A stretch of DNA of 64,000 bases from an uncultured delta proteobacterium (GCA_963711835.1 CAVQFQ010000025.1:49442-113441); one strand, 5' to 3'. Positions 6,995 to 30,477 are shown, counted from the first letter of the stretch. Numbers and translations are program-made. Notes: generated from the sequence alone by a model not told the origin.

Positions 6995-9232
6995 AGGTTT
7001 TCAAAGGGAAGCCAACCTCGTTACCGGGCCAACTTGTTGGGAATACTTGGCCTGTTCCAAGGTGTTCTGTCCGGCATACGATAAAAGAAACCTGACCTGC
7101 TGGACCGTTTCTAAAACTCATTGCAGCGAAGAGGTCAGTGATGATTTCTTTAAAAAAATAGCGGCCTGTGTGGTTTGCCCATACTTCAAAAAAATAGGTG
7201 ACCAGGACCCAAGCGGATGGAATTATTTTCTGGCTGAGCAGATCCGCCAATATAATTTTAAGGCCTTGGGGCAGATCTATCAAAAGGAAGAAAGCTTTAT
7301 CGAAATCTTGGATCGCATCCCCGATGGGCTTTTTACCATCGATCAGGAATGGAGGATCACTTACTTTAATCCGGCGGCCGAAAAAATCACCGGTTTTTCA
7401 ACCCACGATGCGGTAGGGATGTATTGCAAGGACGTTTTAAAAAACACGATTTGTGAGACCGATTGTGCTCTGAAACGAGCTGTGGCTAACGGTACCTACA
7501 CCTATCATCAGGAGCAGATGATAACCAATATTGAAGGGAAAAAGATTCCGATTATCTGTTCAACCTCCGTCTTTTTAGATAACGAAAGGCGAATTACCGG
7601 GGGCATTGAGATATTCAAAGATATTACGGAACTGAGAAATCTCCAGGAGGAAATTTTAAGAAGGGAAAGAAAGTACCGGCGCATCTTTGAAAGCAGTAAT
7701 GACATGATTTATATTTCTAATCAGGGAGGCGCAATTCTGAATGTAAACCAGGCTGGGGTGGATATGCTCGGATACCGCAGCAAAGAGGAGTTGATGGGCA
7801 TCAGATCGGTAAGACAACTGTACCGAAGTACCCGAGATCGTGATCTTTTCATGGAACGGATCAATCGAGACGGGTACGTCAAAGATTTCGAAGTAGATTT
7901 GAAGCGGAAAGACAAATCGCTTGTCCATGTGCTCATTTCCAGCCGGCGCCATATAAATCCCGAAACAGAAGAAATCGAGTTCGAGGGAATTATTAAAGAT
8001 ATTACTCAGCGCAAAAAGGCAGAGCAAGCCCTCAAACAACGAAACCGGGATCTCTCCATTCTCAATACGATTGCTTTGGGTTTGAATATTACCATGGATT
8101 TGGATCAACTCTTGAGAATGACTCTAAAAAATATTATTAAGATGCTGCGAATACAAAGCGGGGCCCTGTTTCTGATTGACCGGGAAAAGAAAAAGGTCTT
8201 GCTCCAAGGGGGATATGGATTACCCGTCCAGGAACCCGGGCGCCTGGGCGAAGTTTTCTTTAAGGATATCCCCTTGATGAATTTCCTTTTAGACGAGGAT
8301 GGGAAGCTTCCACCAAAACCAAAGTTTCCTCCCTTTCAGGTAACTTACCCGGGAGAAGGTGGGAGGCCGGTTCCTTGGTTGTTTAGTTTTCTTATAACCT
8401 CACGGGGCAAATGCCTGGGATTCTTTGGCCTGGATCTTCCGCTCACAAAAATGCTAAGCCCCCATGAAGTGCATTTGCTCTCTTCTTTGGGCAATTTTTT
8501 AGGTGGAGCCATAGAAAATACTCAACTCGTTGAAACCATAAGGCGCCATCGACAAGAGCTGCGAAAACTAACTGAGAAGCTATTCCAGAGCCAGGAAGAG
8601 GAACGACGTCGTATCGCTCGGGAATTGCATGACGAAGCTGGCCAGGCCATGACGGGGATTAAATTGGGGTTGGATAGGCTGGAAGGGGCTGTGCCGGATG
8701 ATAACCAAATTCTTAAAGAAGAAATAGATCAAATCAGGAAGATGGTGACCCGCACTTCTTCGGAAATCAGACAGCTCTCCTATCGACTCCATCCTACGCT
8801 ACTGAGCGACCTTGGCCTGGAGCCGGCTCTGGACCTCTATTTAAAGAGCGTGGCCAACCAGTCGAAAATGAACATCGACTTTCGCATGGTGGGATTTGAC
8901 CACCGCCTGGACGCTGATATTGAAACCGTGCTCTATCGCTTCAGCCAAGAGGCCTTGACCAACACGCTAAAACATTCCGGAGCGGAAAACTTTCACCTCT
9001 CAATCATCAAGGGGTCACCAAAAATTATTTTTTTAGCTGAGGATGATGGGATTGGATTCGATGGCCGGATCATAGGAAACAACAAGAGGAGTTTGGGGTT
9101 ACTGGGTATGCGGGAGCGGGCTTCCCTTTTAGGAGGAACCTTCCAAATCCGAAGCCAACCCATAACCAGGGTACCCGAATTCGTATTGAAATTCCCTTAA
9201 ACGAGGTGCAGAGCCATGGCACAAACGATTAA
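6957..9232 (+). CDS. sensor histidine kinase (Cys-rich N-terminus, 2 PAS, GAF-like, HisKA_3/HATPase); frameshift near 9162; start uncertain
   Basis: IARELHDEAGQ H-box, QEALTN, EDDGIGF, GLLGMRERA; shifted frame restores QGTRIRIEIP as in the paralog at 21042. Confidence 0.85.
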
Positions 9233-9880
9233 AATTCTACTGGTTGACGACCATACCATTGTCAGGCAGGGACTGGCTCGCTTATTGGAGGATCAACCTG
9301 GTTTTAAAGTGGTGGGGGAAGCGGTGAATGGTAGGATTGCCGTTGAAAAGGCACAATCACTAAAACCGGATGTCATTATAATGGATATCGCCATGCCTTC
9401 TTTAAACGGCATTGAAGCCGCCAAAAGAATACGCAAGCTCCTCCCCAATACCAAGATACTGATTCTATCCATGTATTCTCAAGAAAATTATATTCACGAA
9501 CTTTTAGAAGCCGGGATATCGGGATATTTATTAAAAGACACCTCCAGCGGTCCTGATATTGTTCATGCTATTGAAGCGGCCATGAAGGGTGAAACCTCCC
9601 TAAGCCCGTCCGTGTCCAAATTGTTGGTGGATCGGTATCTCTCACTCCGAAAAAGTTCTCCCAAGGAAGAACGCTTCAATCAGCTATCCGATCGGGAAAG
9701 GGAGGTCTTACAGCTCATTGCCGAGGGCATTCGACCAAAAAGATTGCCGATCTACTCTGTATCAGCATTAGCACGATTAAAACCCATCGGGCCAAGGTTA
9801 TGGAAAAACTGGAATTGCGCACCACACCCCAATTAATATATTTTGCTATTCAGCTCGGTTTGGTTGAGCAGGAACTTTAG
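9216..9880 (+). CDS. NarL/LuxR-family response regulator; frameshift near 9728
   Basis: LVDDH...MDIAMP receiver domain; shifted frame gives STKKIADLLCISISTIKTHRAKVMEKL HTH ending at TAG 9878-9880. Confidence 0.85.
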
Positions 9881-10133: not shown

Positions 10134-10479
10134 ATGAGCTTCCTGCTCAGGCCACAGCACTCCCTAGGCAATCCTTTATACACAAAGTTGACCCTCCCGT
10201 GATGAGGCGCTGGAAGCGCTTCGAACGATTCTAAAAGAAGAAGAGATAAGCATACCTATTGATTTGATTTTAATCCGGGATGAAGCTGAAGCTACAGCCA
10301 AGCATTTCCAGGGTTCTCCGACCATCCAGATCAATGGATTGGATTTGGAGCCTGAGGCCCGAGAGCACCCAAAGATCGGTATGGGTTGACGATTTTATAT
10401 AGCGGAGGATGGACGATTCTCCAAGACCCCACCGGATTTCTTGGTCCGGGAGCAATTGAGGATATTGCTCAATGAATAA
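10134..10479 (+). CDS. putative thioredoxin-like selenoprotein with two Sec (DUF2703-like); needs a 1-nt frameshift near 10165-10170 to connect to ATG 10134
   Basis: Frame from 10171 reads ILYTQS-U-PSRDEALEAL...HFQGSPTIQINGLDLEP...GMG-U-RFY...; TGA at 10189 and 10387 sit where this family has Cys; hairpins follow both. Confidence 0.65.
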
Positions 10480-10517
10480 AAAGAACTAATTGATATTAAT
10501 TCGAAAGGAGTGACTTC

Positions 10518-11564
10518 ATGTCGGTCTTCAACTCAAGAGAAAGAGTCCTTCGACTTTTTCGTCGTGAACCGTTGGATACCATGCCCGTGTTTAGTGGGAT
10601 GGGTATGGTTACTATCCAGGCTATTCGTAAGATGGGGATCCCTTTTCCCCAGGTCCATAAATCGGCGGAATACATGGCCCGGGCGGCCTTGACTTCGGCT
10701 GAAATCTTCGGTTTTGATGCCGTGGTTATCCCTTATGATATGTGTACCGTTCCCGAAGCCCTGGGCCGTGGGGTGAGCCTTTATGAGGACTCTGAGGATA
10801 TCCTTTACCCTACCGTTCCAACCAAATGGGAAAGCCTGGAGGCAGTGGAAATTCCCCCGAATTATCTTTCTTTGGGTCGGATGCCTTTGGTGGACAAGGC
10901 ATTCGGTCTTTTAAAGGCCCAGTCGGATCAGGGGTTGGCCATCGGGGGATGGGTCTTGGGACCTTTTACCATGGCCGGACAACTCCTGGAACTGGATTTT
11001 CTCTTAAAAGGAATTAGAAAGGATAAAGAACGTATCGAAGCTTTTCTGGCCACCATGACTGATCTGGTGATTGAAGTAGCACGACATTATCAGGCCCTGG
11101 GACTTGATTATATCACGATCAGGGAAATGGGTTCAGGGACGGATCTCCTTTCCCCGCGTATGTGGACGACCATCATTGAACCCAACCTAAAAAGGCTTTT
11201 TGCCGCTATCCAATCACCCAAGATTCTCCATATCTGCGGTTCCACCGACCTGATTATCGAAATGATGAATAACTGCGGGGCCGATGCCCTTAGTGTGGAT
11301 CAGAAAAACAATTTAGCCTTATCTCGAAAAAAGTTGGGGAATGAAGTGCTGCTTTTAGGTAATTTCGATCCCTACCGTACTCTAGTGCATATGGACCCTT
11401 CTCAGGTGGAGTCGATTATTAAGAAGTGTATCGATGACGGTGCGGATGCGGTCTGGCCAGGATGTGACTTGTGGCCTGATGTGAATGAAGAAAATCTGAA
11501 AGTTGCTTTAAATACCATAAAGACTTATGGTCGCAAGCCGAGTCCCGCAGTCGGAAGGCTCTAA
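10518..11564 (+). CDS. MtaA/CmuA-family (URO-D fold) methyltransferase
   Basis: GPFTMA, ILHICG and WPGCDL motifs; RBS AAGGAG. Confidence 0.88.
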   Translation: MSVFNSRERVLRLFRREPLDTMPVFSGMGMVTIQAIRKMGIPFPQVHKSAEYMARAALTSAEIFGFDAVVIPYDMCTVPEALGRGVSLYEDSEDILYPTVPTKWESLEAVEIPPNYLSLGRMPLVDKAFGLLKAQSDQGLAIGGWVLGPFTMAGQLLELDFLLKGIRKDKERIEAFLATMTDLVIEVARHYQALGLDYITIREMGSGTDLLSPRMWTTIIEPNLKRLFAAIQSPKILHICGSTDLIIEMMNNCGADALSVDQKNNLALSRKKLGNEVLLLGNFDPYRTLVHMDPSQVESIIKKCIDDGADAVWPGCDLWPDVNEENLKVALNTIKTYGRKPSPAVGRL

Positions 11565-11589
11565 TAAATTTTATGAAAGGAGAAAAAAC

Positions 11590-12252
11590 ATGGCAAGCAA
11601 GGACGAATTGCACAAGGTCTTAAAGGAGGGAGTAATTAACTTTCAGGAAGAGGAAGTCAGGGAGGGGGCTCAAAAGATTCTGGCGGAAGGGTACGATCCT
11701 CTGGAAGCGGTCATGGATGGGCTCGCTGCCGGGATGCTGGTCGTGGGAGATCTTTATGAACGCAACGAGTATTTCGTTCCCGAGGTGCTCATGTGCGCCG
11801 ATGCCCTGTATGCCGGGTTGGACATTTTAAGACCCCATATCCCGAAAAAGGAAGGCAATATCAAGGGGCAGGTCGTTATCGGGACCGTTCAGGGGGATGT
11901 CCATGATATCGGTAAGAACCTAATTAAGATGATGTTTGATGTAAGCGGTTTCCAGGTTCATGATCTGGGTCGGGATGTCCCCGTGGAGAAGTTCGTGGCG
12001 GAACAGATGCGCACCGATTCCGAAATCGTCGCCCTGTCGGCGATGATGAGTACAACCATGCTGGGCATGAAAAAAGTAATCCAGATGATCAAGGAAAAAA
12101 ATCCCAACGTAGCCATTATGCTGGGTGGGGCACCGGTTTCTCAGGATGTAACCAAGTTGTTCGGTGCGGATGGCTATGCCGAATCGGCAGGTAATGCCGT
12201 TGAAGAGGCCATAAAAATGATCGGCCGTCTCCGGGAACTTAAGAAGGCGTAA
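11590..12252 (+). CDS. methyltransferase corrinoid protein (MtaC/MtbC-like)
   Basis: YFVPEVLMCA cap domain; GDVHDIGKN base-off/His-on motif; LGGAP; ATG after AAGGAG. Confidence 0.92.
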   Translation: MASKDELHKVLKEGVINFQEEEVREGAQKILAEGYDPLEAVMDGLAAGMLVVGDLYERNEYFVPEVLMCADALYAGLDILRPHIPKKEGNIKGQVVIGTVQGDVHDIGKNLIKMMFDVSGFQVHDLGRDVPVEKFVAEQMRTDSEIVALSAMMSTTMLGMKKVIQMIKEKNPNVAIMLGGAPVSQDVTKLFGADGYAESAGNAVEEAIKMIGRLRELKKA

Positions 12253-12393
12253 AAAGGGCCTCCTGTAATTATCTCCTTTTTCATTCAGCCGAAGGCCGAA
12301 ACCCAGTCGTTTGATATGGTTCGGGCTTCCGGCTTTCGCCGTAGTGACGGAATTTGTGAGTTGGGCAAGAGAATCCAATAAGGGAGGGAAAGT

Positions 12394-14451
12394 TTGAAGG
12401 ATAACAACGCGACTGTGATTTTCCAACCTTCTGGCCGCAGAGGGCTTGTTGAGAAAGGGATTTCTTTAATTGAGGCTTCCCGAAGGTTGGGTGTAGACAT
12501 CGAGGCCTTATGTGGGGAGAAAAAGAAGTGCGGCAAATGCAAGATTCGGATTGAAGAGGGTTTTTTTGAAAAGTTCGGTATTCAATCCAGCCTGTCCCAT
12601 ACGTCTCCCTGGTTGGAAGAGGAAGATAAGTATGTCAATGAACAGGAGAAGAACACCGGTTATCGCCTGGGATGTGTTGCCAATGTTGAGGGGGATCTTT
12701 TGGTCTTCGTACCGGAAGAATCCCGGGCCGGCAAACAGGTGGTGAGTAAAAAGGCCCGGGACATCTACATCGAGCATAACCCGGCCGTCAGGATCTATTA
12801 TGTCGAAGTGGACCCGCCTACTTTTGAGGACCCTACCGGCGATTTTGAACGAATCTGTAGGGAGCTGGAAAAACAATATGGGCTTGGCAAGTTAACGATC
12901 GACTTCTTCACCCTTCGGCAACTCCCCATGGCCCTTCGCGATGGAGACTGGAAAGTGACCGTGAGCATCTGGAATGACCTTGAGATCATCCGGGTGCGGC
13001 CCGGCAAGGCCGAGGCTGCTTATGGAATCGCCATTGATGTGGGGACTACCACCGTGGCCGGGTATTTTTGCAATCTCAACACCATGGAGGTTGTAGATAC
13101 CGTCACCCTGATGAATCCTCAGTGTAAATACGGGGAAGACGTCATGGCCCGAATTACCTGTCATATGACGAACCCGGACGGCCTCAAACGGATGAGCGAC
13201 GACATTATCGAGGGCCTGAACTGGATCATCGGTGAGGCCGTTAAGAACACCTTTCCTCCCAAGAAAAAGGTAAAAAGATCTGACGGGGAGGAAGGCCCTG
13301 AGGAATGGGTGGAGGTGCCGGAAGAAGGGAAGACCTATCTCCGGCTTACCTTGGATGATGTCGAGGATGTAACCATTGGCGGGAATACAGCCATGCATCA
13401 TATCCTGCTCCAGCTCAACCCGGAATTTGTGGGGATGGCCCCCTTTCCTCCGGTGATTCATCACAGCCTGGATGTCAAGACCCGGGATATCGGTCTCAAT
13501 ATTAACCGCGGATCCTATGTCTTCGTCCTGCCAAATGAGGCAGGTTTCGTGGGGGCCGATAATGTGGGGGTGCTTATCGCAGAGGAACCCTATAAGTCCG
13601 ATGAGACCCAGCTTATCATTGATATCGGGACAAACGGCGAGCTGGTTCTGGGCAACAGGCACAAGCTGATATCCTCCTCATGTGCTACGGGCCCGGCCCT
13701 GGAAGGGGCCCAGCTTCAATTCGGCATGCGGGCCGCCCCGGGGGCCATTGAACGGATCAAAATTGATCCGGAGACCCATGAAGTGGATTACAAGGTGATC
13801 GGGCGGGATGCCTGGCGGCAGTACTCCGAACCCAAGGAGATGAAGACCAAGGGAATCTGCGGATCGGGGATCCTGGATGTCTTGGCCGAACTTTATCGTT
13901 CCGGGGTTATTATGAAGAGCGGTGTGTTCAGTAAGAATCAAAAATCGAACCGCTCCCGTATTAATCCGGAAACCAAGCAACCTGAATTTGTGATTGCCTG
14001 GGCAAATGAGACTAGTATCGGGCGGGATGTGGTAATTTCCCAAAAGGATATCAGACAAATCCAACTGGCCAAAGGAGCCCTATATTGCGGATGTAAATTG
14101 ATGATGCGGCGTATGGGTATTGATAAGGTGGAGATAGTAAAGATTGCCGGGGCTTTTGGTACCCACGTAGACCGAGAAAAGGCCTTGATCATGGGTCTAT
14201 TCCCGGATTGTGCGATCGACAAGATTGTTTCCATAGGAAACGCCGCCGGGGATGGAGCTAGGGCGGCCCTGTTGAACCGGGAAAAACGGATTGAGGCCAA
14301 CTGGGTCTCCCGCAATGTGGAATATATTGAATTGACGGTGGAAAAGGATTTCCAGGTTCAATTTATGGAGGCCATGCAGATACCCCATATGAAGGATGCC
14401 TTTCTCCATTTGGAAGGATTGGTAAGAGCTGAAATTCTTCACCAGAAATAA
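12394..14451 (+). CDS. RACE/RamA-type ATP-dependent corrinoid reductive activator (2Fe-2S + ASKHA/DUF4445)
   Basis: CGEKKKCGKC...RLGC ferredoxin; DVGTTT, DIGTNGE, SCATGPALEG, GICGSG, GNAAGDGA. Confidence 0.9.
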   Translation: MKDNNATVIFQPSGRRGLVEKGISLIEASRRLGVDIEALCGEKKKCGKCKIRIEEGFFEKFGIQSSLSHTSPWLEEEDKYVNEQEKNTGYRLGCVANVEGDLLVFVPEESRAGKQVVSKKARDIYIEHNPAVRIYYVEVDPPTFEDPTGDFERICRELEKQYGLGKLTIDFFTLRQLPMALRDGDWKVTVSIWNDLEIIRVRPGKAEAAYGIAIDVGTTTVAGYFCNLNTMEVVDTVTLMNPQCKYGEDVMARITCHMTNPDGLKRMSDDIIEGLNWIIGEAVKNTFPPKKKVKRSDGEEGPEEWVEVPEEGKTYLRLTLDDVEDVTIGGNTAMHHILLQLNPEFVGMAPFPPVIHHSLDVKTRDIGLNINRGSYVFVLPNEAGFVGADNVGVLIAEEPYKSDETQLIIDIGTNGELVLGNRHKLISSSCATGPALEGAQLQFGMRAAPGAIERIKIDPETHEVDYKVIGRDAWRQYSEPKEMKTKGICGSGILDVLAELYRSGVIMKSGVFSKNQKSNRSRINPETKQPEFVIAWANETSIGRDVVISQKDIRQIQLAKGALYCGCKLMMRRMGIDKVEIVKIAGAFGTHVDREKALIMGLFPDCAIDKIVSIGNAAGDGARAALLNREKRIEANWVSRNVEYIELTVEKDFQVQFMEAMQIPHMKDAFLHLEGLVRAEILHQK

Positions 14452-14462
14452 GCAGGGTTTAA

Positions 14463-14807
14463 ATGCAGAAAGACCAACCAGAGAAGAGAGGCGTCCAAGT
14501 ATCCGTGGAACCGGGTATTTGCGGCTTTTCTTGTACGATCAAGGCCAGGATAAAGGAACGCTGGTCAGTGCAACTGGAAATTAATTCCGGCTGTGAGCAG
14601 ATCCAGAACCTTTCTAACCTCTTGAAGGATATTACGGTCAAGGATTTGTTTTTGCCTATAACCCGGAATCCTCTTTATCTTTCGGCTGAACAAGCGGGTT
14701 GTCACCCTTCCTGCGCGGTTCCGGTAGCGGCGGTTAAAGCGACCGAAGTGGCCATGGGGACAGCCCTGCCGCAAGAGGTCAAGATTGAATTCGAGGTCAT
14801 GAAATAA
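14463..14807 (+). CDS. small Cys-containing protein, DUF6951-like
   Basis: GICGF...SGC...CHPSCAVP pattern; paralog at 30478. Confidence 0.6.
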   Translation: MQKDQPEKRGVQVSVEPGICGFSCTIKARIKERWSVQLEINSGCEQIQNLSNLLKDITVKDLFLPITRNPLYLSAEQAGCHPSCAVPVAAVKATEVAMGTALPQEVKIEFEVMK

Positions 14808-14834
14808 TTTAAATTTATTGCGGAAAGGTAAAAA

Positions 14835-16106
14835 ATGATTTCAAAACCTATCCATCTGGTAGTCGTTCATAGTGGAGATTCAAATTGAAAGCCCTGCGAG
14901 CGGGCGCTGGATGCGGCTCAAAAGATAAAGGATCGTTTTGGCAATGCCATCCGATTCGAAGCCTTTACCATTGCTTCGGAAGAAGGAAAGGCCTTTAAAG
15001 TCACCACCTCAACCAATGTCTTTGTAAATGGGGAACTGCTTCCCCTAAACACCTGGCTGGAGGAAGAGAAATTCGTTCAGTATATTCAGGAAGCTATCGG
15101 AGGAAAGGAAAAAGCAGCCGGAAAGATTGAGGTACACGAAAAGTTCGACGTGGTGATCATTGGCGGCGGCCCGGCCGGATTGACGGCAGGTATCTATTGT
15201 GCTCGCGCCAGGCTGAAAACCATCTTATTGGAAGGGGCCAGCCTTGGTGGTCAGGTGGCTATGACGGACAAGATTGAAAATTACCCGGGGTACACCGGCG
15301 AAAGCGGCCCTGAATTAATTAATACTATGGAAAGGCAGGCCAGGAAGTTCGGTCTTGAGATACAAACGTTCAAAACGGTGACCCAGATCATGGGAGACGG
15401 GTTGCTCAAAGAAGTCTATGCCGGAAATGATCTTTATCCCTGCGAGGCGCTTATCTTAGCCACCGGCCTTAAGACATCGGAATTAAATCTTGAAAAAGAA
15501 GATTATTTCAGGGGCAAAGGCCTGTCGTATTGTGCCGTTTGTGATGCTAATTTTTTTGTCGGAAAGAAAGTTGTGGTCGTCGGGGGCGGGGACACCGCGG
15601 CTGAAGATGCCTTGTACCTGTCCAAATTTGCCTCACAGGTTTTTATTGTCCACAGAAGGGACGAGTTGCGGGCGGCAAAAATATTACAAGAAGCCGTTTC
15701 CTGCAATGAAAAGATCACCGTCTTGTGGAGCCATGTCGTCCAGAGTCTGGTTGGGGACACGGTGTTGGAGGGGCTGGTTTTGAGGGATCTGAAGACCGGA
15801 AACGAAACCAGGCTGGATGTGGAGGGTTTTTTCGTTGCCATTGGATCTCGTCCCTACACCGGCTTCATTAAAAACCTGGTGGCTATGGATGAACAAGGGT
15901 TTGTCCTGGTAAATTCCAGGATGGAGACTTCCTATCCAGGTATCTTTGCGGCTGGTGATATCAGAGACACCCCTTTGAGACAGGTATCCACAGCCGTTGG
16001 CGATGGGGCCATTGCGGCCATATCGGCTGAAAAATTTGTCAGAGACGTGAAGGATAAAGGCGAGTGTAAACTACCCGAATCAAAAACGGCCTCCTTTCCT
16101 TTTTGA
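14835..16106 (+). CDS. putative selenoprotein: UxxC thioredoxin-like domain fused to thioredoxin reductase (423 aa)
   Basis: ATG 14835 is in frame with the TrxR ORF; only interruption is TGA 14886 in SN-U-KPC; TrxR motifs GGGPAG, YCAVCD, GGGDTA, FAAGD. Confidence 0.8.
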
Positions 16107-16109
16107 TTC

Positions 16110-17057
16110 ATGGTTCTGAAAAACAGAATGCCTCCAGTAACTATGTATATCATAGGCGGTTTCCTTGGTTCCGGGAAGACCACTTTTTTGCAAACCCTGT
16201 TGGATTGGCAGGGCGATCTTTCCTCCACCGCTGTTATGGTTAACGAATTTGGGGAAATCTCGGTTGACGGGATGCTCCTGGATTCGAAAGGTAGCCAGCT
16301 TGTGGAATTGGCCAGCGGATGCATCTGCTGCTCCATGAGAGGGGAATTTATCAAGAGTTTGGAGAATGTTTTAGATAATTTTACGATTACCAGAATTTTT
16401 GTTGAGACAACGGGCGTGGCCGATACCTTGGAACTTATTTCGGTTCTGAAAGAATCCAAGGTCTCGGAACGTGTTGCCCTGAAAAAGATTATTTGCGTCC
16501 TGGATGCCGACCTCTGGCCGGGAAGAGATAATTTTGGGCTGGTTTTTTTAAATCAAATAAAGGCTGCCGATCTGATCCTTCTCAATAAAGTCGATCTCGT
16601 CGAAAAAGGTCAGGTGGTTCCCTTTATGGAAGAGATACAAAAGATAAATCCCGACAGTCTGGTCATCCCTACTTATTACTGCAGGATAGACCTGGATCTG
16701 CTTTTGGATGGGGAAGAACGAGATCGCCCCCTGCGCCTCGACACAGTGAATGGGCTGCCAGACTTTAATTCTAATCTGGAGAAGCCCATCGGTTTTGCGA
16801 CTTTTCTTTTTCAGGAGGAGGGCTCGCTCTCCGAGGCTTGTTTCAAAGAGTTCCTTGATAAAATCCCTCCCCACATTTTTCGTATTAAGGGGCAAGTAAG
16901 GTTTTCGGGAAAGGCTTTTCTGCTGAACCATGTCGGAGGCAGGAGCCAATGGATCGAATCTGAAAACAAAAGTGGCTCCCAATTGGTCTTTATCGGCTGG
17001 AATATGGATACGGAGGCCCTTAAGGCCGATCTGGCAGCTTGCCTGGAGGGCAAGTGA
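16110..17057 (+). CDS. CobW/COG0523-family GTPase metallochaperone
   Basis: GFLGSGKTT, NEFG, GCICC, ETTG, NKVD, RIKG motifs. Confidence 0.88.
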   Translation: MVLKNRMPPVTMYIIGGFLGSGKTTFLQTLLDWQGDLSSTAVMVNEFGEISVDGMLLDSKGSQLVELASGCICCSMRGEFIKSLENVLDNFTITRIFVETTGVADTLELISVLKESKVSERVALKKIICVLDADLWPGRDNFGLVFLNQIKAADLILLNKVDLVEKGQVVPFMEEIQKINPDSLVIPTYYCRIDLDLLLDGEERDRPLRLDTVNGLPDFNSNLEKPIGFATFLFQEEGSLSEACFKEFLDKIPPHIFRIKGQVRFSGKAFLLNHVGGRSQWIESENKSGSQLVFIGWNMDTEALKADLAACLEGK

Positions 17058-17111
17058 TCATGAAGGAAGGACTTTCCAAAAGTGTTTGGATATCAGAAAG
17101 GGGATTGGGCC

Positions 17112-17549
17112 GTGGATAAGGAGTCTATTCAAAAAGGTATGCTGGCCTTAGCGCAGGAGGGATTTCGCTGCAGCCAAATTATGCTGGCCTTGGGACTCAA
17201 ACGCCAGGGCAAGGAAAACCCGGATCTGATTCGAGCCATGGGCGGTTTGATCGTCGGGGTCGGCTACAGCGGCAAGATTTGCGGTGCCCTCACCGGGGGT
17301 ACTTGCCTGATCACTTTGTATGCCGGTAGGGGGCGGGCTGATGAGAAAGAGCACCCTAAGCTGTGGCCCATGGTCCAGGAATTCGTTGAATGGTTTGAGT
17401 CGGAGATAGGGGAAAACAAGGGAATCATTGACTGTGATGGGATCCTGGAAAGAGCCGGTGTAGCTAAACCTTCCAGCGAGACCTGCGGACCGATCGTACT
17501 TAAAGCCTACATAAAGGCCGTTTCCATTTTAGAGGCAAACGGACTATAG
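17112..17549 (+). CDS. C-GCAxxG-C-C family putative redox protein
   Basis: CSQ...ICGALTGG...C...C pattern; probable GTG start at 17112. Confidence 0.75.
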   Translation: MDKESIQKGMLALAQEGFRCSQIMLALGLKRQGKENPDLIRAMGGLIVGVGYSGKICGALTGGTCLITLYAGRGRADEKEHPKLWPMVQEFVEWFESEIGENKGIIDCDGILERAGVAKPSSETCGPIVLKAYIKAVSILEANGL

Positions 17550-17599
17550 CAAAAAAAATACCATAAATTAAACTCGAAAAAGAAAGGGGGCGAGAGAAG

Positions 17600-17818
17600 G
17601 TGGCGAACGAAATAAAGACAAGCAAGTTGCAGATTATTGCCAATACGGGGAACTGAATACCGATTATTAAAATAGCCCTGGAAGGGACTGAAGGGGTTGA
17701 AAAGGCCGAGGTCGATATTCAATATGCCACCGTATGGCATGATCCGGCTAAGGTTTCTGCTGATCAGTTGGCCGCCATAGTAACCAAAGCAGGAAAAGAT
17801 TGTTTTCCTGTAAGTTAA
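17600..17818 (+). CDS. putative HMA/CopZ-fold selenoprotein with a single Sec (72 aa)
   Basis: GTG after purine-rich RBS; MANEIKTSKLQIIANTGN-U-IPIIKIALEGTEGVEKAEVDIQYATVWHDPAKVSADQLAAIVTKAG; TGA 17654; fills the operon gap. Confidence 0.75.
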
Positions 17819-17842
17819 GACAAGCCTGAAAGGAGGGCAAAC

Positions 17843-18892
17843 ATGAGCATTCCAAAAGACAAAATGACCCCCAAGGAAAGAATGGGCTCCCTACTTCAAG
17901 GAAAACCCATTGACAGAGTCCCTTGCATTCCGGTTATCCTTAACGGTTGTGCCAGAGTGGCAGGCTATACCATCAAGGAAATGACCCTGGACGGAGAGAA
18001 GTTCGGTAAGGCTAATGTAGCCACTTATAAAAAATACGGCCATGATATGATTTGTCTGCTTGATGCCACGGGTACCACAGCCGAGGCAGCGGGAACCAAA
18101 CTGAATTATCCGGATGAGATGCCTGCTTTTGTGGAAGACCCCTTGATCAAGTCCAGGGACGATTTAAAAAAGCTGCGTCCACTGGACCCCACCAAGGATG
18201 GCCGCCTCAACAATTACCTGATAGCCACGGAGTATTGCGTTTCAGAAGTAGGCAACGAGGTGTTTGTCGGGACCCTCTTTGCCGGCGCCTTTACCACCGC
18301 AGCCTGTTTGAGAGGCACTGAGGCCCTTTTGAAAGATATCTATAAAGATAAAGAAATGGTCCATCATCTGGTGAGATGGGCAACCGACGTCACCATACCT
18401 TTTTTAGATGAAGTCATCAAAAGAGGGGGCGTTCCGTTTTTGTGTGAGCCGGTAGGTACGGGAAGCATCCTGAATCCCAAAGCCTTTGCTGAATTTGTAG
18501 AACCGTATCAGAAAGAATTAAACGATTTTGTAAAATCTAAAGGTCTCCCCGCGCTAAATCATATCTGTGGGAATTCCCTGCCGATCATGGAACCTTGGCT
18601 CCGGACCGGCCCGACGGTCATTAGTGTGGATCGGGTGGATATCGGGGAGATCTCAAAAAAGTTTGGAGATAAGGTGGGATTGTGTGGGAATGTCAATCCC
18701 GGGAAGACGCTCTTTATGGGTTCCCCGGAAGCGGTCGATGCCGAGGTAAAGGATATTATGGAAAAAGCTGGGAAAAATCCCTGCGGTTTTGTGCTGGCTT
18801 CGGGGTGCGAAGTGCCCAGTGAAACGCCTCCGGAGAATATCTTTGCCATGATGGATGCCGCGAGAAAATATGGGCAACATCCATTACCTTAG
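17843..18892 (+). CDS. URO-D/MtaA-CmuA family methyltransferase
   Basis: MTPKER...DRVP, GAFTTA, NHICGN, SGCEV motifs. Confidence 0.88.
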   Translation: MSIPKDKMTPKERMGSLLQGKPIDRVPCIPVILNGCARVAGYTIKEMTLDGEKFGKANVATYKKYGHDMICLLDATGTTAEAAGTKLNYPDEMPAFVEDPLIKSRDDLKKLRPLDPTKDGRLNNYLIATEYCVSEVGNEVFVGTLFAGAFTTAACLRGTEALLKDIYKDKEMVHHLVRWATDVTIPFLDEVIKRGGVPFLCEPVGTGSILNPKAFAEFVEPYQKELNDFVKSKGLPALNHICGNSLPIMEPWLRTGPTVISVDRVDIGEISKKFGDKVGLCGNVNPGKTLFMGSPEAVDAEVKDIMEKAGKNPCGFVLASGCEVPSETPPENIFAMMDAARKYGQHPLP

Positions 18893-18908
18893 ATAGGAGG
18901 TGTAACTT

Positions 18909-19139
18909 ATGGAAGACATAAAAGAGATTATCATTAAGATCCCCAGCTTAACTTGAACTACTTGAGAGGTGATGGTTAACGCGGCTCTGGATGAGTCCGT
19001 CGGCGTTCTTGAGTATGAAACAAGTATTGCAACACTGCAAACACGGGTGAAATTTAATTCAAATCAAACCAACGAAGAGACCTTGATGGAAAATATCAAG
19101 AAGAAAACAGGTTATAGTAACCTATACGTACTCTCATAA
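18909..19139 (+). CDS. putative HMA/CopZ-fold selenoprotein with UxxU motif (76 aa)
   Basis: GGAGG RBS, ATG 18909; MEDIKEIIIKIPSLT-U-TT-U-EVMVNAALDESVGVLEY...KKTGY; TGA at 18954 and 18963 replace both Cys of the MxCxxC motif. Confidence 0.82.
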
Positions 19140-19474: not shown

Positions 19475-20083
19475 ATGAAAGAGAAAAGGATCATTGATTG
19501 TCGAGGCCTTGCCTGCCCTCAACCGGTAATTCAAACTAAGGAGGCCCTTGAAAAGTTCTCAGCCGGCTGTCTTCAAGTTATAGCCGATAATGATTCCTCC
19601 TGCATCAATGTCAGGCGTTACGCCGAGAGCCAGGGGCATCTGGTTCAAGTTGAGGAAAAGGAAGGAAATTATTTTTTGGAGATTGAGAAAAGAAATGCTT
19701 CAATTGCCTCGGATAGGTTAACCGAAGTTTCCCAGGAAGCTCAGGAAAAGAGCCTTGTGATTTATATTGCTTCCGAAGGGGTTGGAAGGGGAGATGATGA
19801 ATTGGGCCGTATTCTAATGGCCGCCTACCTGGATACCCTCTCCCAATTTGCCCGAGAGATCTCTCACCTGATTTTTATGAATAGTGGGGTCAAGTTGGCA
19901 GTGGAGGGCTCTTCAGTTCTTGAGCAAATAGAAAATCTGAAGAGCATGGGTGTCGAGGTGCTGAGCTGCGGTACCTGCTTGAATTTTTTCGGGGTTATTG
20001 AAAAACTTCGAGTCGGCTCTGTTTCCAATATGATGATTATACAGGAGATCCTTTCTAAGGCGAAAAAGGTCTTGAGCCCATAA
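19475..20083 (+). CDS. yedF: selenium metabolism protein YedF (TusA-like + DsrE-like)
   Basis: IDCRGLACPQPV N-terminus; GRGDDELGRILM; MNSGVKL; SCGTCL; VGSVSNM. Confidence 0.85.
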   Translation: MKEKRIIDCRGLACPQPVIQTKEALEKFSAGCLQVIADNDSSCINVRRYAESQGHLVQVEEKEGNYFLEIEKRNASIASDRLTEVSQEAQEKSLVIYIASEGVGRGDDELGRILMAAYLDTLSQFAREISHLIFMNSGVKLAVEGSSVLEQIENLKSMGVEVLSCGTCLNFFGVIEKLRVGSVSNMMIIQEILSKAKKVLSP

Positions 20084-20206
20084 AAAATAAACCGGTGAAT
20101 TTTCACCTACTGAGGCGGATATCTTATTTTTCAAATATAAAATAATACCTCCCGATCGATCATGTCGGTTAAACGGATTGTTTGTACCTGTGATGAAAGG
20201 AGCTGC

Positions 20207-20746
20207 GTGGAAAACAAAAGGCATTCCCGTAATAAGATAAAGCCAGCCTCACTGATTTCACTGGTCCAAAGAGCCCTCGAATTGGGGGCGAATGAAGCCA
20301 AGCCTTTGAGGACGGATCAGGTGGTTTTTGATCCTCGTGCCCATCTCAAGTGCCGCTTTGGCTGCGGGCGCTGGGGCAAGTATTGGACCTGCCCACCCCA
20401 TCTTGCTCTCCCGCAGTCCACTTTTGATAAAGCCTTTGCTCGATACCAGACGGCTTTGGTTATCAAAACCAGCGATCCCAAATCCGGGCAAGAGGTGGCC
20501 CTATCTTTGGAAAAAGAGGCCATGTTACAATATGGCTGCTCCTTTGCCCTGGCCCTGGCCCTCTGTGTTCAGTGTGAAGAGTGCGCTTATCCGGAGCCCT
20601 GCCGTTACCCTCACCTGGCCAGGCCGGCCTTGGATGCCTTAGGCGTAGACGTGGGCAAGACCCTGGAGCCTCTGGGCTTTAAGGTGGAATTCGACAAGGA
20701 AGGCCTGCTCCTTCCCGTCTGGTACACCATGGTCTTGCTGGATTAA
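20207..20746 (+). CDS. DUF2284-like Cys-rich putative metal-binding protein
   Basis: KCRFGC...WTCPP and CVQCEEC...PCRYP...ARP..DALGVDV; GTG after AGGAG. Confidence 0.7.
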   Translation: MENKRHSRNKIKPASLISLVQRALELGANEAKPLRTDQVVFDPRAHLKCRFGCGRWGKYWTCPPHLALPQSTFDKAFARYQTALVIKTSDPKSGQEVALSLEKEAMLQYGCSFALALALCVQCEECAYPEPCRYPHLARPALDALGVDVGKTLEPLGFKVEFDKEGLLLPVWYTMVLLD

Positions 20747-21041: not shown

Positions 21042-23036
21042 ATGTCTGGGCAAGCAAAAATCTTATCTGCAACCCCTTTGATACCCACTGGTCCGGCGGA
21101 GGAAGTTCTTTTCCAGGTCATGGCCCGACTGAATGACGGTCTTTTTATCGTCGACAGCGGGGGAAAAATTACCTATCTGAATCCGGCGGCCGAGGAAATA
21201 ACCGGCCTTTCATCCTCCGAGGCGGCAGGCCGCCCCTGCAGCGAAGTATTCGAAAGCCTGACTGTTGAGCAGGGCCCTTTCCCCCCCGAAGGCCCGGAAA
21301 CGACGGATTCGATTCTTCATCAAAAATGTTTGTCCCTGAAGGGCGACGGAAAAAAAATTCCACTCTATCGCACCCTGTCGGTCTTAACGGATCGGGCCGG
21401 AAAGACGATCGGCCAAATGGGGATCTTGAGGGATGTTTCCCGCAGCAAGGCCCTGGAGGATGATTGGCAGCTTTCCGAGAACCAATACCGGCAGATTTTT
21501 GAGGGATCCAGGGATTTGATTTTTATTACCTCCAAGGAGGGGAGGATTAAAGATGTCAATCAAGCCGGGTTGGACTTGCTGAAATACCGCCATAAGCCGG
21601 AATTATTGGACCTGGAATCGGTGGAGAAGATATTTCGAAATCCCATACATTGGGCGGTATTCCGGAAACAAATCGACCGCCACGGTTCCATAAAAGACTT
21701 CGAAGCCGGATTCAAGAGGAAGGATGGCGCCTTTATTCATTGTCTGCTGAGCGGAAATGCGGTTCGCAACTGGATCGGAGAGATTGTAGGCTATGAGGCG
21801 ATAGCCAAAGATATCACCGCCCGCATGGACGCCCATCGGATTTTACAACAGCGGCATAGCGACTTACAGGTACTGACCTCCGTTGCTCTGGCCATGAACA
21901 CCACCCAGGATTTAAATGACATCCTCAAAATTGCCCTGACCAAGGTTCTAAATGCTTTAAACCTGACCTCGGGGGGGATCTTCTTAATCGACCATGATAA
22001 AGCGGCCTACCTGCTCCGGGCCCAACAGGGACTCCCGGATATCGGGGCCGATACCGGCAACCGCATTTTCCTCACGGACCAACTCCTTATGGAGGGGCTC
22101 CTCAAAAAAAATCTTCATCTTGCCCCGGAACCCATTTTCCCTCCTTTCAAGGCCGTCCTGCGGGGCGAAAACGAGGCTCCGGCTTTGGAGTTTACCTGCT
22201 TCCTGATTACCGCCAAGGAGAAGGCCTGCGGGTTTATGGCCTTTGTGGTTCCCGCAAACAGGGATCTTACCTCCGGGGAAGATTACCATCTCCTGGGTTC
22301 TTTAGGGAACTTTTTAGGCGGGGCTATTGAAAACGCCCAACTTCTCGAAACGATTCAGGAGCACCGGGAAGAGCTCAAAGGGTTGACGGCGAACCTGTTT
22401 CATTCCCAGGAGGGAGAAAGAAAACGGATTGCCCAGGAATTGCATGACGAGGCCGGGCAAGCCCTGACCGGGATTCATTTTACCCTGGAAACGATTGAGA
22501 AGGGCATTTCCTCCGAATCGATCCAGACCCGGGAACTTATTGCCGAGGTGAAACGGCAGATCAACCGCACTTATCAGGAAATGCGCAATATTTCGTATAG
22601 CCTGCACCCGGCCATTTTAAGTGATTTAGGCCTGGAACCGGCCTTGGATTCCTATGTGGCCAATCTTTCCCTGCTTCGGGAAATTGAAATCGATTTCAAA
22701 ATGATCGGTTTCGAAAAGCGCCTGGACACGGAAATGGAGACCGTCTTATACCGCCTTTCGCAGGAGGCGATAACCAACTCTCTGAAACACTCCGGGGCAA
22801 AACATATTAAGCTTTCGATCATCAAGAGTTATCCCCGTATTATCTTTGTTGCCGAGGATGACGGGGTGGGTTTCAGCAGCCCTTCAAGAACCAAGCCCAA
22901 ACAATCCCTGGGTCTATTGGGCATGCGGGAAAGGGCCTCCATGTTGGGGGGAAACTTCTCGATCCGGTCGAACCCCGGGCAAGGGACCAGGATACGAATT
23001 GAAATGCCCATCCGGGAGGCCTCTAATGGCCGATAA
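21042..23036 (+). CDS. PAS/GAF sensor histidine kinase (HisKA_3), paralog of 6957
   Basis: IAQELHDEAGQ, QEAITN, EDDGVGF, GLLGMRERA. Confidence 0.9.
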   Translation: MSGQAKILSATPLIPTGPAEEVLFQVMARLNDGLFIVDSGGKITYLNPAAEEITGLSSSEAAGRPCSEVFESLTVEQGPFPPEGPETTDSILHQKCLSLKGDGKKIPLYRTLSVLTDRAGKTIGQMGILRDVSRSKALEDDWQLSENQYRQIFEGSRDLIFITSKEGRIKDVNQAGLDLLKYRHKPELLDLESVEKIFRNPIHWAVFRKQIDRHGSIKDFEAGFKRKDGAFIHCLLSGNAVRNWIGEIVGYEAIAKDITARMDAHRILQQRHSDLQVLTSVALAMNTTQDLNDILKIALTKVLNALNLTSGGIFLIDHDKAAYLLRAQQGLPDIGADTGNRIFLTDQLLMEGLLKKNLHLAPEPIFPPFKAVLRGENEAPALEFTCFLITAKEKACGFMAFVVPANRDLTSGEDYHLLGSLGNFLGGAIENAQLLETIQEHREELKGLTANLFHSQEGERKRIAQELHDEAGQALTGIHFTLETIEKGISSESIQTRELIAEVKRQINRTYQEMRNISYSLHPAILSDLGLEPALDSYVANLSLLREIEIDFKMIGFEKRLDTEMETVLYRLSQEAITNSLKHSGAKHIKLSIIKSYPRIIFVAEDDGVGFSSPSRTKPKQSLGLLGMRERASMLGGNFSIRSNPGQGTRIRIEMPIREASNGR

Positions 23037-23694
23037 AGCGGTTACCGTACTGTTGGCCGACGACCATACCATTGTCCTCCAAGGCTTGGCCAAGTTATTG
23101 GAAGGGGAACCGAACATCCGGGTGGTGGGGGAAGCGCACAACGGGCGGGAGGCCGTCAATAAGGTGGAGGAATTAAAACCCGATGTGATCGTGATGGACA
23201 TCGCCATGCCCATTTTAAACGGCATTGAGGCCACCCGTCAGATCAAAAAAATCCGCCCTCAAAGCAAAGTCATCATCCTATCCATGCATTCACACGATCG
23301 TTTTATCAATGAACTTTTTTCTCTGGGGGCCTCGGGCTATCTTCTGAAGGATTCTACAGGCCAGGACATCATTCGGGCGATTCAGGCCGCCGTCAGGGGA
23401 GATACCTACTTGAGTCCTTCCATTTCCCGGCGGGTTATAGAAAACTATGTTTCCTTGAAAAAAAATAAATCCTCCCAGGAAGAACTTTACAGTCAACTTT
23501 CAAACCGGGAGCGGGAAGTGTTCCAGATGATCGCCGAGGGGCGTTCCACGAAAGAAATTGCCGATATTCTTTATGTCAGCCAAAGTACGGTAAAGTCCCA
23601 TCGCGCCAATATCCTGGAAAAACTGCAGATAGAAAACCTTAGCCAGCTCATCCAGTTTGCCATTTCCTTGAACCTAGTGGAAATCCAGCAATAG
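23026..23694 (+). CDS. NarL/LuxR-family response regulator
   Basis: LADDH, MDIAMP, LSNREREV...TVKSHRANI; ATG 23026 after GGAGG. Confidence 0.92.
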   Translation: MADKAVTVLLADDHTIVLQGLAKLLEGEPNIRVVGEAHNGREAVNKVEELKPDVIVMDIAMPILNGIEATRQIKKIRPQSKVIILSMHSHDRFINELFSLGASGYLLKDSTGQDIIRAIQAAVRGDTYLSPSISRRVIENYVSLKKNKSSQEELYSQLSNREREVFQMIAEGRSTKEIADILYVSQSTVKSHRANILEKLQIENLSQLIQFAISLNLVEIQQ

Positions 23695-23855: not shown

Positions 23856-24803
23856 GTGTTCCAGATAGAAACAGCACAAAAAGTGTGCCAGGTCGGAGGG
23901 GTGAAGTTCGGGGGGCAACCTGGAGAATATCCTACCGTGGTCTGTTCCTCCATCTTCCAAAAAGGAGACAAATTATTTCTGGGAAAAAGGCAGGAGGGCT
24001 TTGATGAAAAGCGGGCCGCGGAACTCCTTAAGACCCAGGACAAGCTCTGGCAGGAGACCGGGGTGCCGGGCATGGCCGATATCGTGGCCAATACCGGCAG
24101 TGAATTTAAGACTTATATTGATTTTGTGACCTCAGTGAGTAATATGCCCTTTTGTATCGATGCCTGGACTATGAAACCCAAACTGGAGGGGGCGGCCTAT
24201 TGTGCCGAAAAAGGCCTGCTGGACCGGATGTTTTATAACAGCCTGACGGTCTGGGAAAAGGATTTGGAGACCGAAATCAAGGAAATTGCCCAAATCGGCG
24301 TAAAACACGTGCTCCTGGTGGCCTTTGATATGGCGGATCAATTACCCAGTGGGAGAATCGCCGGCACCCAAAAACTACTTGATGCCATTGATAAGGTGGG
24401 GGCATCCTTTGAAAGCCTATTTGTTGACACTTCGGTCATGAACGGACCGGCCACGGCTTTTTGTGGCCTGGCCAACCGTCTGATTAAGGAAAAATGGGGC
24501 TTCCCCACCGGAAGCGCTCCGAGTAACGGATCGTATATGTGGAAAAAGGCCCGGGAAATGTGGGGGTTCACGGGCTGGTCGGCGGTCGATGCCGGTTTGG
24601 AGTCCCTGGCCTCCTTTCTATACCATGACATCATCTTTTCCGGTCCCATGGCCGGTGCCCCGAGAATCTTTCCGGCCGTGGCCATGGCCGATGCCTTTTT
24701 AGCCACGGCGGTTTTTGCCGAGAGCAAGCGGTTGCCCCAGGATCCGAACCATCCGCTATTTAAGCTCTTTCCGGAATTTGTGGAGCAACTCAAAAAGATT
24801 TAA
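23856..24803 (+). CDS. MtrH-like pterin:corrinoid methyltransferase
   Basis: FGGQPGEYPTV..SIF signature, FCID, YNSL, VDTSV, PTGSAPSN. Confidence 0.85.
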   Translation: MFQIETAQKVCQVGGVKFGGQPGEYPTVVCSSIFQKGDKLFLGKRQEGFDEKRAAELLKTQDKLWQETGVPGMADIVANTGSEFKTYIDFVTSVSNMPFCIDAWTMKPKLEGAAYCAEKGLLDRMFYNSLTVWEKDLETEIKEIAQIGVKHVLLVAFDMADQLPSGRIAGTQKLLDAIDKVGASFESLFVDTSVMNGPATAFCGLANRLIKEKWGFPTGSAPSNGSYMWKKAREMWGFTGWSAVDAGLESLASFLYHDIIFSGPMAGAPRIFPAVAMADAFLATAVFAESKRLPQDPNHPLFKLFPEFVEQLKKI

Positions 24804-24900
24804 TAAGCTAAGGTTCCAATTCTAAACCGGCAGCGGGTGGCCGGCCGAGGCCTTTCGCCGAGGGAATCCCCGGAAATAAAAAGAAAAAGGAGGGACAGGC

Positions 24901-25581
24901 ATGGCTTCAGAAGAAAGAACAAAAGAACTAATGAAAGCCCTTCAGGAGGCGGTAGTCAACTACGATGAGGACAAGGTCAAGGAATTGTCTCAGGCCGTTA
25001 TCGATGAAGGGGCGGATCCCTTTACGGCTACCATGGACGGTTTGGCTGAAGGGATGATTCAGGTTGGGGATCTTTATAATAAAAAGGAATACTTCGTCCC
25101 CGAGCTCCTGATGTGCGCCGATGCCCTGTATGCAGGACTGGACCTTCTGAAGCCCGCCATTGAGGCTTCCGGGAGAAAAAGCGAATCCAAGGGTTCTATC
25201 GTGCTCGGGGTGGTCGAAGGCGATGTCCACGACATCGGTAAAAACCTGATCAAGATGATGTTTGAGGTGGCCGGCTGGACCGTTTATGACTTGGGTAAAG
25301 ACGTGCCTTTGGACCGGTTCTTGGAGGAACAGTTGAGGACGGACTCGGATATCGTCGGGCTTTCGGCCTTGATGACTACCAGCATGATCAGTATGCCCGA
25401 GATCGTCAAGAAGCTGAAGGAGAAAAATCCCAAGGTTCGGGTTATGTTGGGCGGCGCCCCCATTACCCCGGAAGTGGTGGAAAAGTACGGCGCCGACGGC
25501 TACGCCCGGGATGCCGGGACGGCCGTAGACGAGGCCATTAAATTGATTAAGATGCTCCGGGAAGAAGAAAAGGCAAAGTAA
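24901..25581 (+). CDS. methyltransferase corrinoid protein
   Basis: YFVPELLMCA, GDVHDIGKN, SALMTT, LGGAP. Confidence 0.92.
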   Translation: MASEERTKELMKALQEAVVNYDEDKVKELSQAVIDEGADPFTATMDGLAEGMIQVGDLYNKKEYFVPELLMCADALYAGLDLLKPAIEASGRKSESKGSIVLGVVEGDVHDIGKNLIKMMFEVAGWTVYDLGKDVPLDRFLEEQLRTDSDIVGLSALMTTSMISMPEIVKKLKEKNPKVRVMLGGAPITPEVVEKYGADGYARDAGTAVDEAIKLIKMLREEEKAK

Positions 25582-25719
25582 ATCAAAGCCTTTTCAAGGG
25601 TGATTTCCCTTTTCCTTTGAGCGATCCGGCGGGCAAAAAATAACACCCTTTTTTGTTTTCTCAGTCTTACTCTGAGCTGAGCATTAACTCGTTATCGGGA
25701 TAGAGAAAGGAGCCGTATT

Positions 25720-29172: not shown

Positions 29173-29296
29173 GTGTTGGAGTGCAAAAAAGAATTGCGTG
29201 TGAAGAAAATTCAAAACGAACATCGAACATGAAATTTCGAATGACGAAGTGTTCTTTTTTTTGATAGGCATCATTCGTTAATTAAGGAGGCTAATC

Positions 29297-30334: not shown

Positions 30335-30477
30335 GGGGAAACATCGGACCCATTTCGTATTAAAGCAGGACCCGGGCTCTTGGCCCGGGAAGGGGATGAA
30401 AAGGCCAACCACCTTGACCGTTAGAGGTAAATTCGCGGAACAGGTTTTATAAGTACCTATAGGGGAGCAACAGGCCT

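Follow-up and report, generated by a model that had tools for sequence, protein, structure and literature searches.

The sequence analysed here is a stretch of 64,000 nucleotides (nt) from an uncultured delta proteobacterium (GCA_963711835.1, CAVQFQ010000025.1:49442-113441), hereafter termed the window. Between positions 10,134 and 19,139 it carries a cluster of genes in which MtaA/CmuA-like methyltransferases, a corrinoid protein and a corrinoid activator are accompanied by four genes with in-frame TGA codons (Table 1). These four small genes, with redox and metal-binding functions, encode a DF-family protein, a fusion of a TsoX domain with a thioredoxin-disulfide reductase (TsoX-TrxB) and two HMA-fold proteins. 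They contain six in-frame TGAs at Cys-equivalent sites, and the window genes were translated with TGA as U, i.e., selenocysteine (Sec). It is very likely that the TGAs encode Sec and that the hairpins which follow them are selenocysteine insertion sequence (SECIS) elements, because family matches, the Sec machinery of the genome, an enrichment of the hairpins over ordinary stops, and conservation and covariation in relatives all point this way.

Table 1. Genes and candidate SECIS hairpins of the cluster, in window coordinates.
Feature	Position	Strand	Evidence and remarks
DF-family selenoprotein gene, two Sec codons (TGA 10189, 10387)	10134..10479	+	NF049942 93.3 bits (cut-off 70)
SECIS-like hairpin for TGA 10189	10203..10223	+	9-bp stem, GGA triloop, U-A closing pair; codons Glu-Ala-Leu-Glu-Ala-Leu
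SECIS-like hairpin for TGA 10387	10404..10422	+	7-bp stem, GGACG loop; codons Glu-Asp-Gly-Arg-Phe-Ser
MtaA/CmuA-like methyltransferase	10518..11564	+	PF01208; TIGR01463 218 bits, under cut-off of 235
Corrinoid (B12-binding) protein	11590..12252	+	PF02310, PF02607
RACo/ASKHA corrinoid activator	12394..14451	+	PF14574, PF17651, PF17650
TsoX domain (U-x-x-C, TGA 14886) fused to thioredoxin-disulfide reductase	14835..16106	+	NF045809 94.3 bits (cut-off 52); TIGR01292 359 bits (cut-off 343)
Weak SECIS-like hairpin for TGA 14886	14898..14919	+	bulged 4+3 bp stem, UGGAU loop; codons Glu-Arg-Ala-Leu-Asp-Ala-Ala
CobW-type GTPase	16110-17057	+	PF02492, PF07683
DVU_1555 C-GCAxxG-C-C protein	17082-17549	+	NF045669
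HMA-like protein, one Sec (TGA 17654)	17600..17818	+	PF00403 17.7 bits, under cut-off of 24.8; NF041115 37 bits (cut-off 95)
SECIS-like hairpin for TGA 17654	17674..17689	+	4-bp core CCCU/AGGG, GGA triloop; codons Ile-Ala-Leu-Glu-Gly-Thr
Second MtaA/CmuA-like methyltransferase, between both HMA genes	17843..18892	+	PF01208
HMA-fold protein, U-T-T-U (TGA 18954, 18963) replacing metal-binding CxxC	18909..19139	+	PF00403 29.6 bits, above cut-off
SECIS-like hairpin, 22 nt after TGA 18963, 31 nt after TGA 18954	18983..18997	+	5-bp stem, UGGAU loop; codons Ala-Leu-Asp-Glu-Ser
Selenium metabolism protein YedF	19475-20083	+	TIGR03527 218 bits (cut-off 110)
DUF2284 protein	20162-20746	+	PF10050

A preliminary description of this sequence had reported hairpins of shared loop sequence and spacing behind five TGAs (10189, 10387, 14886, 17654 and 18963). 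All five are at these coordinates, TGGA begins exactly 19, 20, 19, 22 and 22 nt downstream, respectively, and the stems quoted are found. The shared loop holds in part: TGGA lies within or closes each loop, yet the loops differ, i.e., GGA triloops with U-A closure after TGAs 10189 and 17654, UGGAU pentaloops after 14886 and 18963, and GGACG after 10387. A sixth TGA, 18954, had been overlooked; it is in frame, 9 nt before 18963, and gives the motif U-T-T-U. The bacterial SECIS model of Zhang and Gladyshev, as set out in PMC13188914, comprises a loop of 3-9 nt on a stem of at least 4 bp, with a G followed by G or U, 16-37 nt after the UGA. The claimed fit to this model is borne out, since all six window sites pass our own implementation of the published rule (not bSECISearch). 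Folded from +12, i.e., without the first 12 nt after the TGA, the part a ribosome would cover, 6/6 sites have a loop of 3-9 nt on a stem of at least 4 bp (14886 only with a bulge), and 6/6 have the G within the first two loop positions which the model usually has followed by G or U. The loops are 19-31 nt from the UGA (16-37 in the model), and the minimum free energies over nt +12 to +58 range from -8.4 to -13.8 kcal/mol at a threshold of <= -7.5 kcal/mol. Lying inside the coding region, the window elements match every testable feature of the consensus, and UGGA counts as one form of N-G-G-N. The spacing range of this genome is tighter (mostly 17-24 nt), and two stems of the window are weak by this standard. 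An Rfam scan of the window at gathering thresholds returned 0 matches. We consider the hairpins likely to be an ordinary bacterial RNA signal.

The TGGA hairpins of the window are beyond chance, because TGGA at 19-22 nt combined with a perfect stem of at least 4 bp follows 0/920 TGA stops and 63/10211 in-frame Cys codons, compared with 4/5 window sites; 14886 is the site which fails this strict rule. So the motif is not equally frequent after ordinary TGA stops. The preliminary description had taken the hairpins as independent support for Sec decoding: the enrichment over stops and the conservation of the hairpins uphold the support, but the UGGAs are not independent of the protein sequence. 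A blind scan for TGGA hairpins behind all 125271 TGA triplets gave mostly noise without a peak at 19-22 nt and was abandoned; therefore Sec sites were picked on protein evidence. This yielded a comparison set of 34 Sec sites outside the window, chosen by a TGA aligned to a Cys of a paralogue or by a familiar motif. Pfam backs 30/32 of the regions carrying these sites; one further region is TsoA, and the last (C5, L115), which matches no family and probably does not represent a gene, was nevertheless retained in the set. Not included were five more Cys-aligned rows, whose downstream coding scores were poor or whose frames were implausible, and the two Cys-aligned rows of the window itself. Query P0004 found no other TGA-containing match in 251 genomes of the phylum, a result which holds for that query only.

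The distances between UGA and hairpin at the Sec sites show a sharp peak at 17-24 nt. A G[G/U]-loop hairpin in this range follows 26/34 Sec sites, 26/920 TGA stops and 514/10211 Cys codons, whereby the range was fixed after viewing the 34 sites and the 26/34 is thus partly fitted. Cys-type HdrA/MvhD paralogue sites in this genome pass in 1/11 cases. Further, the genome contains tRNA-Sec (selC), selA, selB and selD, the latter with its own in-frame TGA. The signs of selection on the stems are strong for 10387 and moderate for 18963; 10189, 14886 and 17654 show conservation alone.

The start of the DF gene is inferred to be ATG 10134: in the assembly an in-frame TAG (10165) breaks the frame near 10167 and leaves no in-frame start. 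One base at 10167 is absent from contigs of three other runs; therefore the break is probably due to a fault in the assembly. On the same ground, read-through of TAG 10165 with pyrrolysine was rejected. The analysis covered 24/30 loci (six weak partial matches were dropped) plus L096. Among 251 genomes a DF gene with two TGAs occurs only in G000, i.e., the genome of the window, and in G105 and G229, all of one family, with both TGAs present. At the first site 2/3 TGA-type versus 0/20 Cys-type sequences pass the hairpin rule, both other Sec-type homologues retain a weaker 4-bp core, and TGGA at 19-22 nt is found in 2/20 Cys-type sequences. The CTGGA of Cys-type L036, L038 and L039 was discarded as a control for this site; it is at 16 nt, one codon earlier and not at the same position. 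At the second site 19/20 TGA-type sequences pass the rule, with TGGA in just 4/20. Here the stem of the window subgroup is paired in 41/42 cells, 3/7 pairs have changed on both sides, and 0/500 shuffles score as high. In a second DF subgroup the stem covaries in a different register. The window protein scores above the curated cut-off of family NF049942 (hypothetical protein DF, PMC12013277) and has the C-terminal Sec site of many relatives. It differs in having another Sec, which is N-terminal; DF is entered with one Sec in the 2026 inventory. In L029 the two-Sec DF gene is followed by an ACR3 gene and preceded by a TGA-containing gene (L029:1173-1463) for a secreted-looking protein ending in GUSU.

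The TsoX analysis covered 4/9 loci. For the TsoX-TrxB fusion, the 13-nt core of the 14886 hairpin is identical in 4/4 fusion genes; stand-alone TsoX genes have an AGGU, AGGC or AGGCGG loop at the equivalent place. L099 and L100 carry full-length fusions, and in these two the TrxB part was checked over its full length. In the window, 14259-15718 is spanned gap-free by a contig of another run, and TGA 16104 was taken as the stop. The protein scores above the curated cut-off of TsoX NF045809 and shares its HSG-x-x-x-U motif and UxxC. Unlike three other TsoX genes, which end near residue 90, it is fused to a full thioredoxin reductase in an AhpF-like layout. NF045809 is typed 'equivalog_domain', so its curators may already know TsoX fusions.

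In the single-Sec HMA protein, Sec stands where the CxxC loop has its second Cys, and the first position is not Cys. TGA 17654 is kept in 4/4 homologous loci and the core of its hairpin in 5/5 sequences, where one A-to-G change leaves a U-G pair. Both TGAs of the U-T-T-U gene are invariant in 10/10 aligned sequences, and in L100. The 5 bp of its stem are kept in 10/10 with one compensatory change from C-G to U-A, and synonymous sites are frozen in 3/3 codons of the hairpin versus 2/25 comparable codons elsewhere. A tandem arrangement, i.e., an additional UGGU-loop hairpin 17 nt after the first UGA, was rejected; it folds in L094 and L096 and is absent from the 10-sequence consensus. The U-T-T-U protein has the predicted beta-alpha-beta-beta-alpha-beta fold and the CxxC-equivalent loop of HMA proteins (AlphaFold pLDDT 92.7; versus MerP TM 0.87, rmsd 1.3). 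Compared with the MerP/CopZ/HMA metallochaperones (PDB 1osd, 3dxs; TM 0.86-0.87), its UxxU aligns with MTCxxC. It differs in having Sec for Cys, about 25% identity, methyltransferases as neighbours and no signal peptide evident from sequence. The closest selenoprotein family is NF041115, metal-binding UxxU ('putative mercuric reductase' in the inventory), likewise HMA-like with UxxU and about 75 aa. It is the best selenoprotein model for 18909-19139 and the best overall for 17600-17818, and 12/12 aligned members match it at E<=0.001. The scores of 36-37 bits (35.8 and 37) are far under the cut-off of 95, and the 17600 protein has the second Sec only; the window HMA proteins therefore represent separate subfamilies. 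A second, TGA-containing copy of the UxxU HMA gene is seen in related clusters (L097:3232-3504). In PMC13582414, the UxxU of group 4 [NiFeSe] hydrogenases is likewise encoded by two UGAs 9 nt apart, with one shared downstream SECIS proposed; the proteins are unrelated, and the single-SECIS reading is a proposal in both.

What, then, is the UGGA? The preliminary description saw in it a lineage-specific consensus and staked this on the known selenoprotein genes of the organism. The consensus fails because these genes lack it: both fdhA genes, selD and the NiFe hydrogenase are without TGGA at 19-22 nt, as are NuoE and 3/4 hdrA sites. Among all 34 other Sec sites TGGA is at 19-22 nt in 2, in a loop in 1, a frequency about equal to the background of Cys codons (415/10211). 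The loop 4-mers of the 26 passing sites are CGUG (6), CGGG (5), AGGU (3), AGGA, UGGC, CGGU and GGUC (2 each), and UGGA, AGUU, GGGC and AGUG (1 each). As judged from the codons, the UGGA common to these sites is largely a side effect of Leu-Asp/Glu. The tripeptide Ala-Leu-[Asp/Glu] accounts for 4/5 window UGGAs, and genome-wide it gives TGGA in 1021/1223 occurrences. The fifth, behind TGA 10387, consists of Asp-Gly codons and reads GGUC in 5/5 close homologues. Asp or Glu follows the conserved Leu in 6/31 Cys-type HMA motifs versus 12/12 Sec-type rows, which is the pattern to expect from an RNA that requires a G at that place.

It is hence most improbable that the SelB of this lineage reads UGGA at 19-22 nt as its SECIS consensus. 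The 5/5 within the cluster and the invariance of UGGA in orthologues of both HMA genes and of the TsoX-TrxB fusion would suit it; against it stand the Sec sites elsewhere in the genome, the GGUC of DF homologues of the same family, AGGU and other loops at Sec sites of neighbouring genes in related clusters, and the fact that one selB above cut-off has to serve every site. The codon argument lowers the UGGA excess of the cluster but does not abolish it. With the invariance in three orthologue sets, this excess leaves a small chance for a UGGA subclass specific to the cassette, of tuned strength or from a donor with a UGGA-preferring SelB, which would set the priority of genes in selenium scarcity. 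The synonymous freeze in the UxxU hairpin and the G+C content of the region (48.3% vs 52.8% genome-wide) agree with such a subclass. Yet stem pairing alone accounts for most of the freeze, codons explain four of the five UGGAs with the fifth a private wobble, and ArsM-like genes of related clusters alternate between AUGGAU and AAGGAU. A literature search found no published UGGA SECIS class, which is not proof of absence.

Two other explanations concern the UGAs themselves. Some or all could be read as Cys by a tRNA-ReC and a SelB* using the same hairpins. PMC13582414 reports tRNA-ReC for about 56% of the genomes that encode UxxU hydrogenases, where one or both UGAs may then be Cys, and our genome is 89% complete. 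We regard this as very unlikely here, with a single tRNA-Sec (ARAGORN, default settings) and a single selB above cut-off. BLAST with selC returned selC itself and partial exact repeats, a search without a dedicated tRNA-ReC model and in a genome 89% complete. Exact partial copies of the 3' part of tRNA-Sec are located at G000:C1:7246-7312 (67 nt) and C21:18566-18587 (22 nt); they may be traces of elements integrating at selC. There is a very small chance that the genes are decayed, in which case the TGAs would be genuine stops or sequence errors and the hairpins fortuitous; assembly frameshifts nearby (near 9160 and 10167) and database proteins ending at the TGA would suit this. Against it, relatives 50-84% identical have TGA without exception at the Cys-equivalent positions, conservation of the protein extends to both sides of it, the stems covary, and synonymous changes abound elsewhere.

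Apart from the fitted spacing range, several points count against Sec decoding by ordinary SECIS hairpins. An unfitted, literature-style rule is loose (25/34 Sec sites vs 158/920 stops and 409/1500 sampled Cys codons). Two non-TGA DF homologues pass at the second site (L032 with Cys, L035 with Arg), and so do 5/31 Cys-type HMA motifs. The homologue sets are small and interrelated, and the UxxU loci were partly found by a peptide pattern spanning this region. UGGA in 5/5 cluster sites vs 2/34 outside gives a Fisher p=3.6e-5, uncorrected for the selection made in the preliminary description. Two hairpins are weak: that of 17654 has a core of 4 bp, and that of 14886 (3 bp, bulge, 4 bp) does not appear in the minimum-energy structure when the whole stretch is folded and forms only without the first 12 nt in the fold (-8.6 kcal/mol, GG unpaired with P=0.99).

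All things considered, it is highly probable that six UGAs in four genes are read as Sec via ordinary SECIS hairpins, UGGA being a compromise between two codes. In bacteria, Sec is brought to the UGA by a SelB-GTP-Sec-tRNA complex that recognises the loop through its G. At the window sites the loop G is 20-23 nt after the nearest UGA. The hairpin would stand just outside the ribosome, and SelB-GTP-Sec-tRNA on the loop G would bring Sec to the UGA; in the U-T-T-U gene a single hairpin, at distances of 22 and 31 nt, may serve both UGAs. In the four genes a helix Leu 6-8 residues after the Sec motif would supply UG through CUG. The SECIS would require a further G, for which Asp or Glu (GA.) may be the commonest supply. 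Presumably the loop G is under selection, and U and A mostly accompany the codons.

The genes are kept together in relatives. The order TsoX-TrxB, single-Sec HMA, methyltransferase, UxxU HMA is the same in L092, L099 and L100, and L093 keeps the last three. Thus TsoX-TrxB and both HMA genes, DF excepted, recur jointly next to an MtaA/CmuA-like methyltransferase. RNA contigs of run X10 overlap parts of the cluster and have no bearing on expression or read-through. L099 has ArsM-like, ArsR-type and TsoA-like genes near the cluster, and L097 has an ArsM-like one. Further small genes with a TGA, found in related clusters (L092:5639-6547, L099:833-1807), encode TsoA-like and DsrE-like UPPC proteins, the label of the latter given by eye. 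We tentatively propose, as a possible though rather doubtful function, an uncatalogued selenoprotein cassette of TsoX-TrxB, single-Sec HMA and U-T-T-U HMA around the methyltransferase. The selenol carriers might capture a metal or metalloid in methylated form (Hg, As, Se) and pass it to corrinoid methyl transfer with the fusion enzyme as reductant, i.e., anaerobic organometal demethylation or methylation. The ArsM-like, ArsR-type, TsoA-like and ACR3 neighbours in relatives support a role with methylated metals or metalloids without showing one. A literature search found no paper on Sec-HMA proteins beside corrinoid methyltransferases, which again is not proof of absence.

Upstream of the cluster a PAS histidine kinase and a response regulator are frameshifted near their ends (window 9150-9200, 9730-9880); bases at 9158 and 9162 are absent from contigs of other runs. 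A paralogous pair is present at 21042-23694. At 23856-30825 a second corrinoid methyl-transfer set comprises an MtrH-like protein, a corrinoid protein, an MtaA-like enzyme, DUF6951 and a RACo activator of 1150 aa into which a GltD-like flavin/Fe-S module is inserted.

With about 33 Sec sites outside the window and six inside, the selenoproteome of this organism is large. An RtcB RNA ligase (G000:C26:22508-23167, minus strand, L131) has an in-frame TGA in its DIN-C-G motif, with a G-loop hairpin 21 nt behind it; the family table in the accessible part of PMC13188914 does not include RtcB, and a literature search gave no such report. A NuoE-type 2Fe-2S subunit (G000:C23:9802-10146, minus strand, L121) and a NiFe hydrogenase large subunit with an N-terminal CxxU (C24:6334-6993, L112) each have an in-frame TGA with a good hairpin. 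In a NuoI-like ferredoxin (G000:C10:150873-151532, L102) a TGA at a 4Fe-4S ligand position may be Sec, a mutation or a sequence error, and no hairpin there passes either rule. C4:353846 and C17:471837 (minus strand, glutaredoxin-like by eye) are two more candidates. A second selenoprotein cluster, of tso-type, at G000:C13:70010-74300 encodes a rhodanese, TsoA and a rhodanese/DsbD fusion with UxxxxU; a UxxF candidate is at 74253.

DF, TsoX and the UxxU metal-binding family are among the 119 families tabulated in PMC13188914; its accessible part lists neither a two-Sec DF, nor the TsoX-TrxB fusion, nor these two HMA subfamilies, a gap which is provisional as the TsoX-defining paper was not covered. 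Thus the proteins marked by the hairpins, i.e., the UxxU and single-Sec HMA subfamilies, the TsoX-TrxB fusion and the two-Sec DF, are provisionally regarded as modestly new. Their database entries are fragments ending at the UGA. A scan restricted to UGGA would miss 33/34 of the other Sec sites; the standard G-loop rule at 17-24 nt catches most. The U-T-T-U protein, with 76 residues and a well-folded prediction, is a test case for the question whether one SECIS can serve two UGAs 9 nt apart. The recurring pairing of Sec-HMA carriers with a corrinoid methyltransferase points to a substrate in sediment anaerobes.

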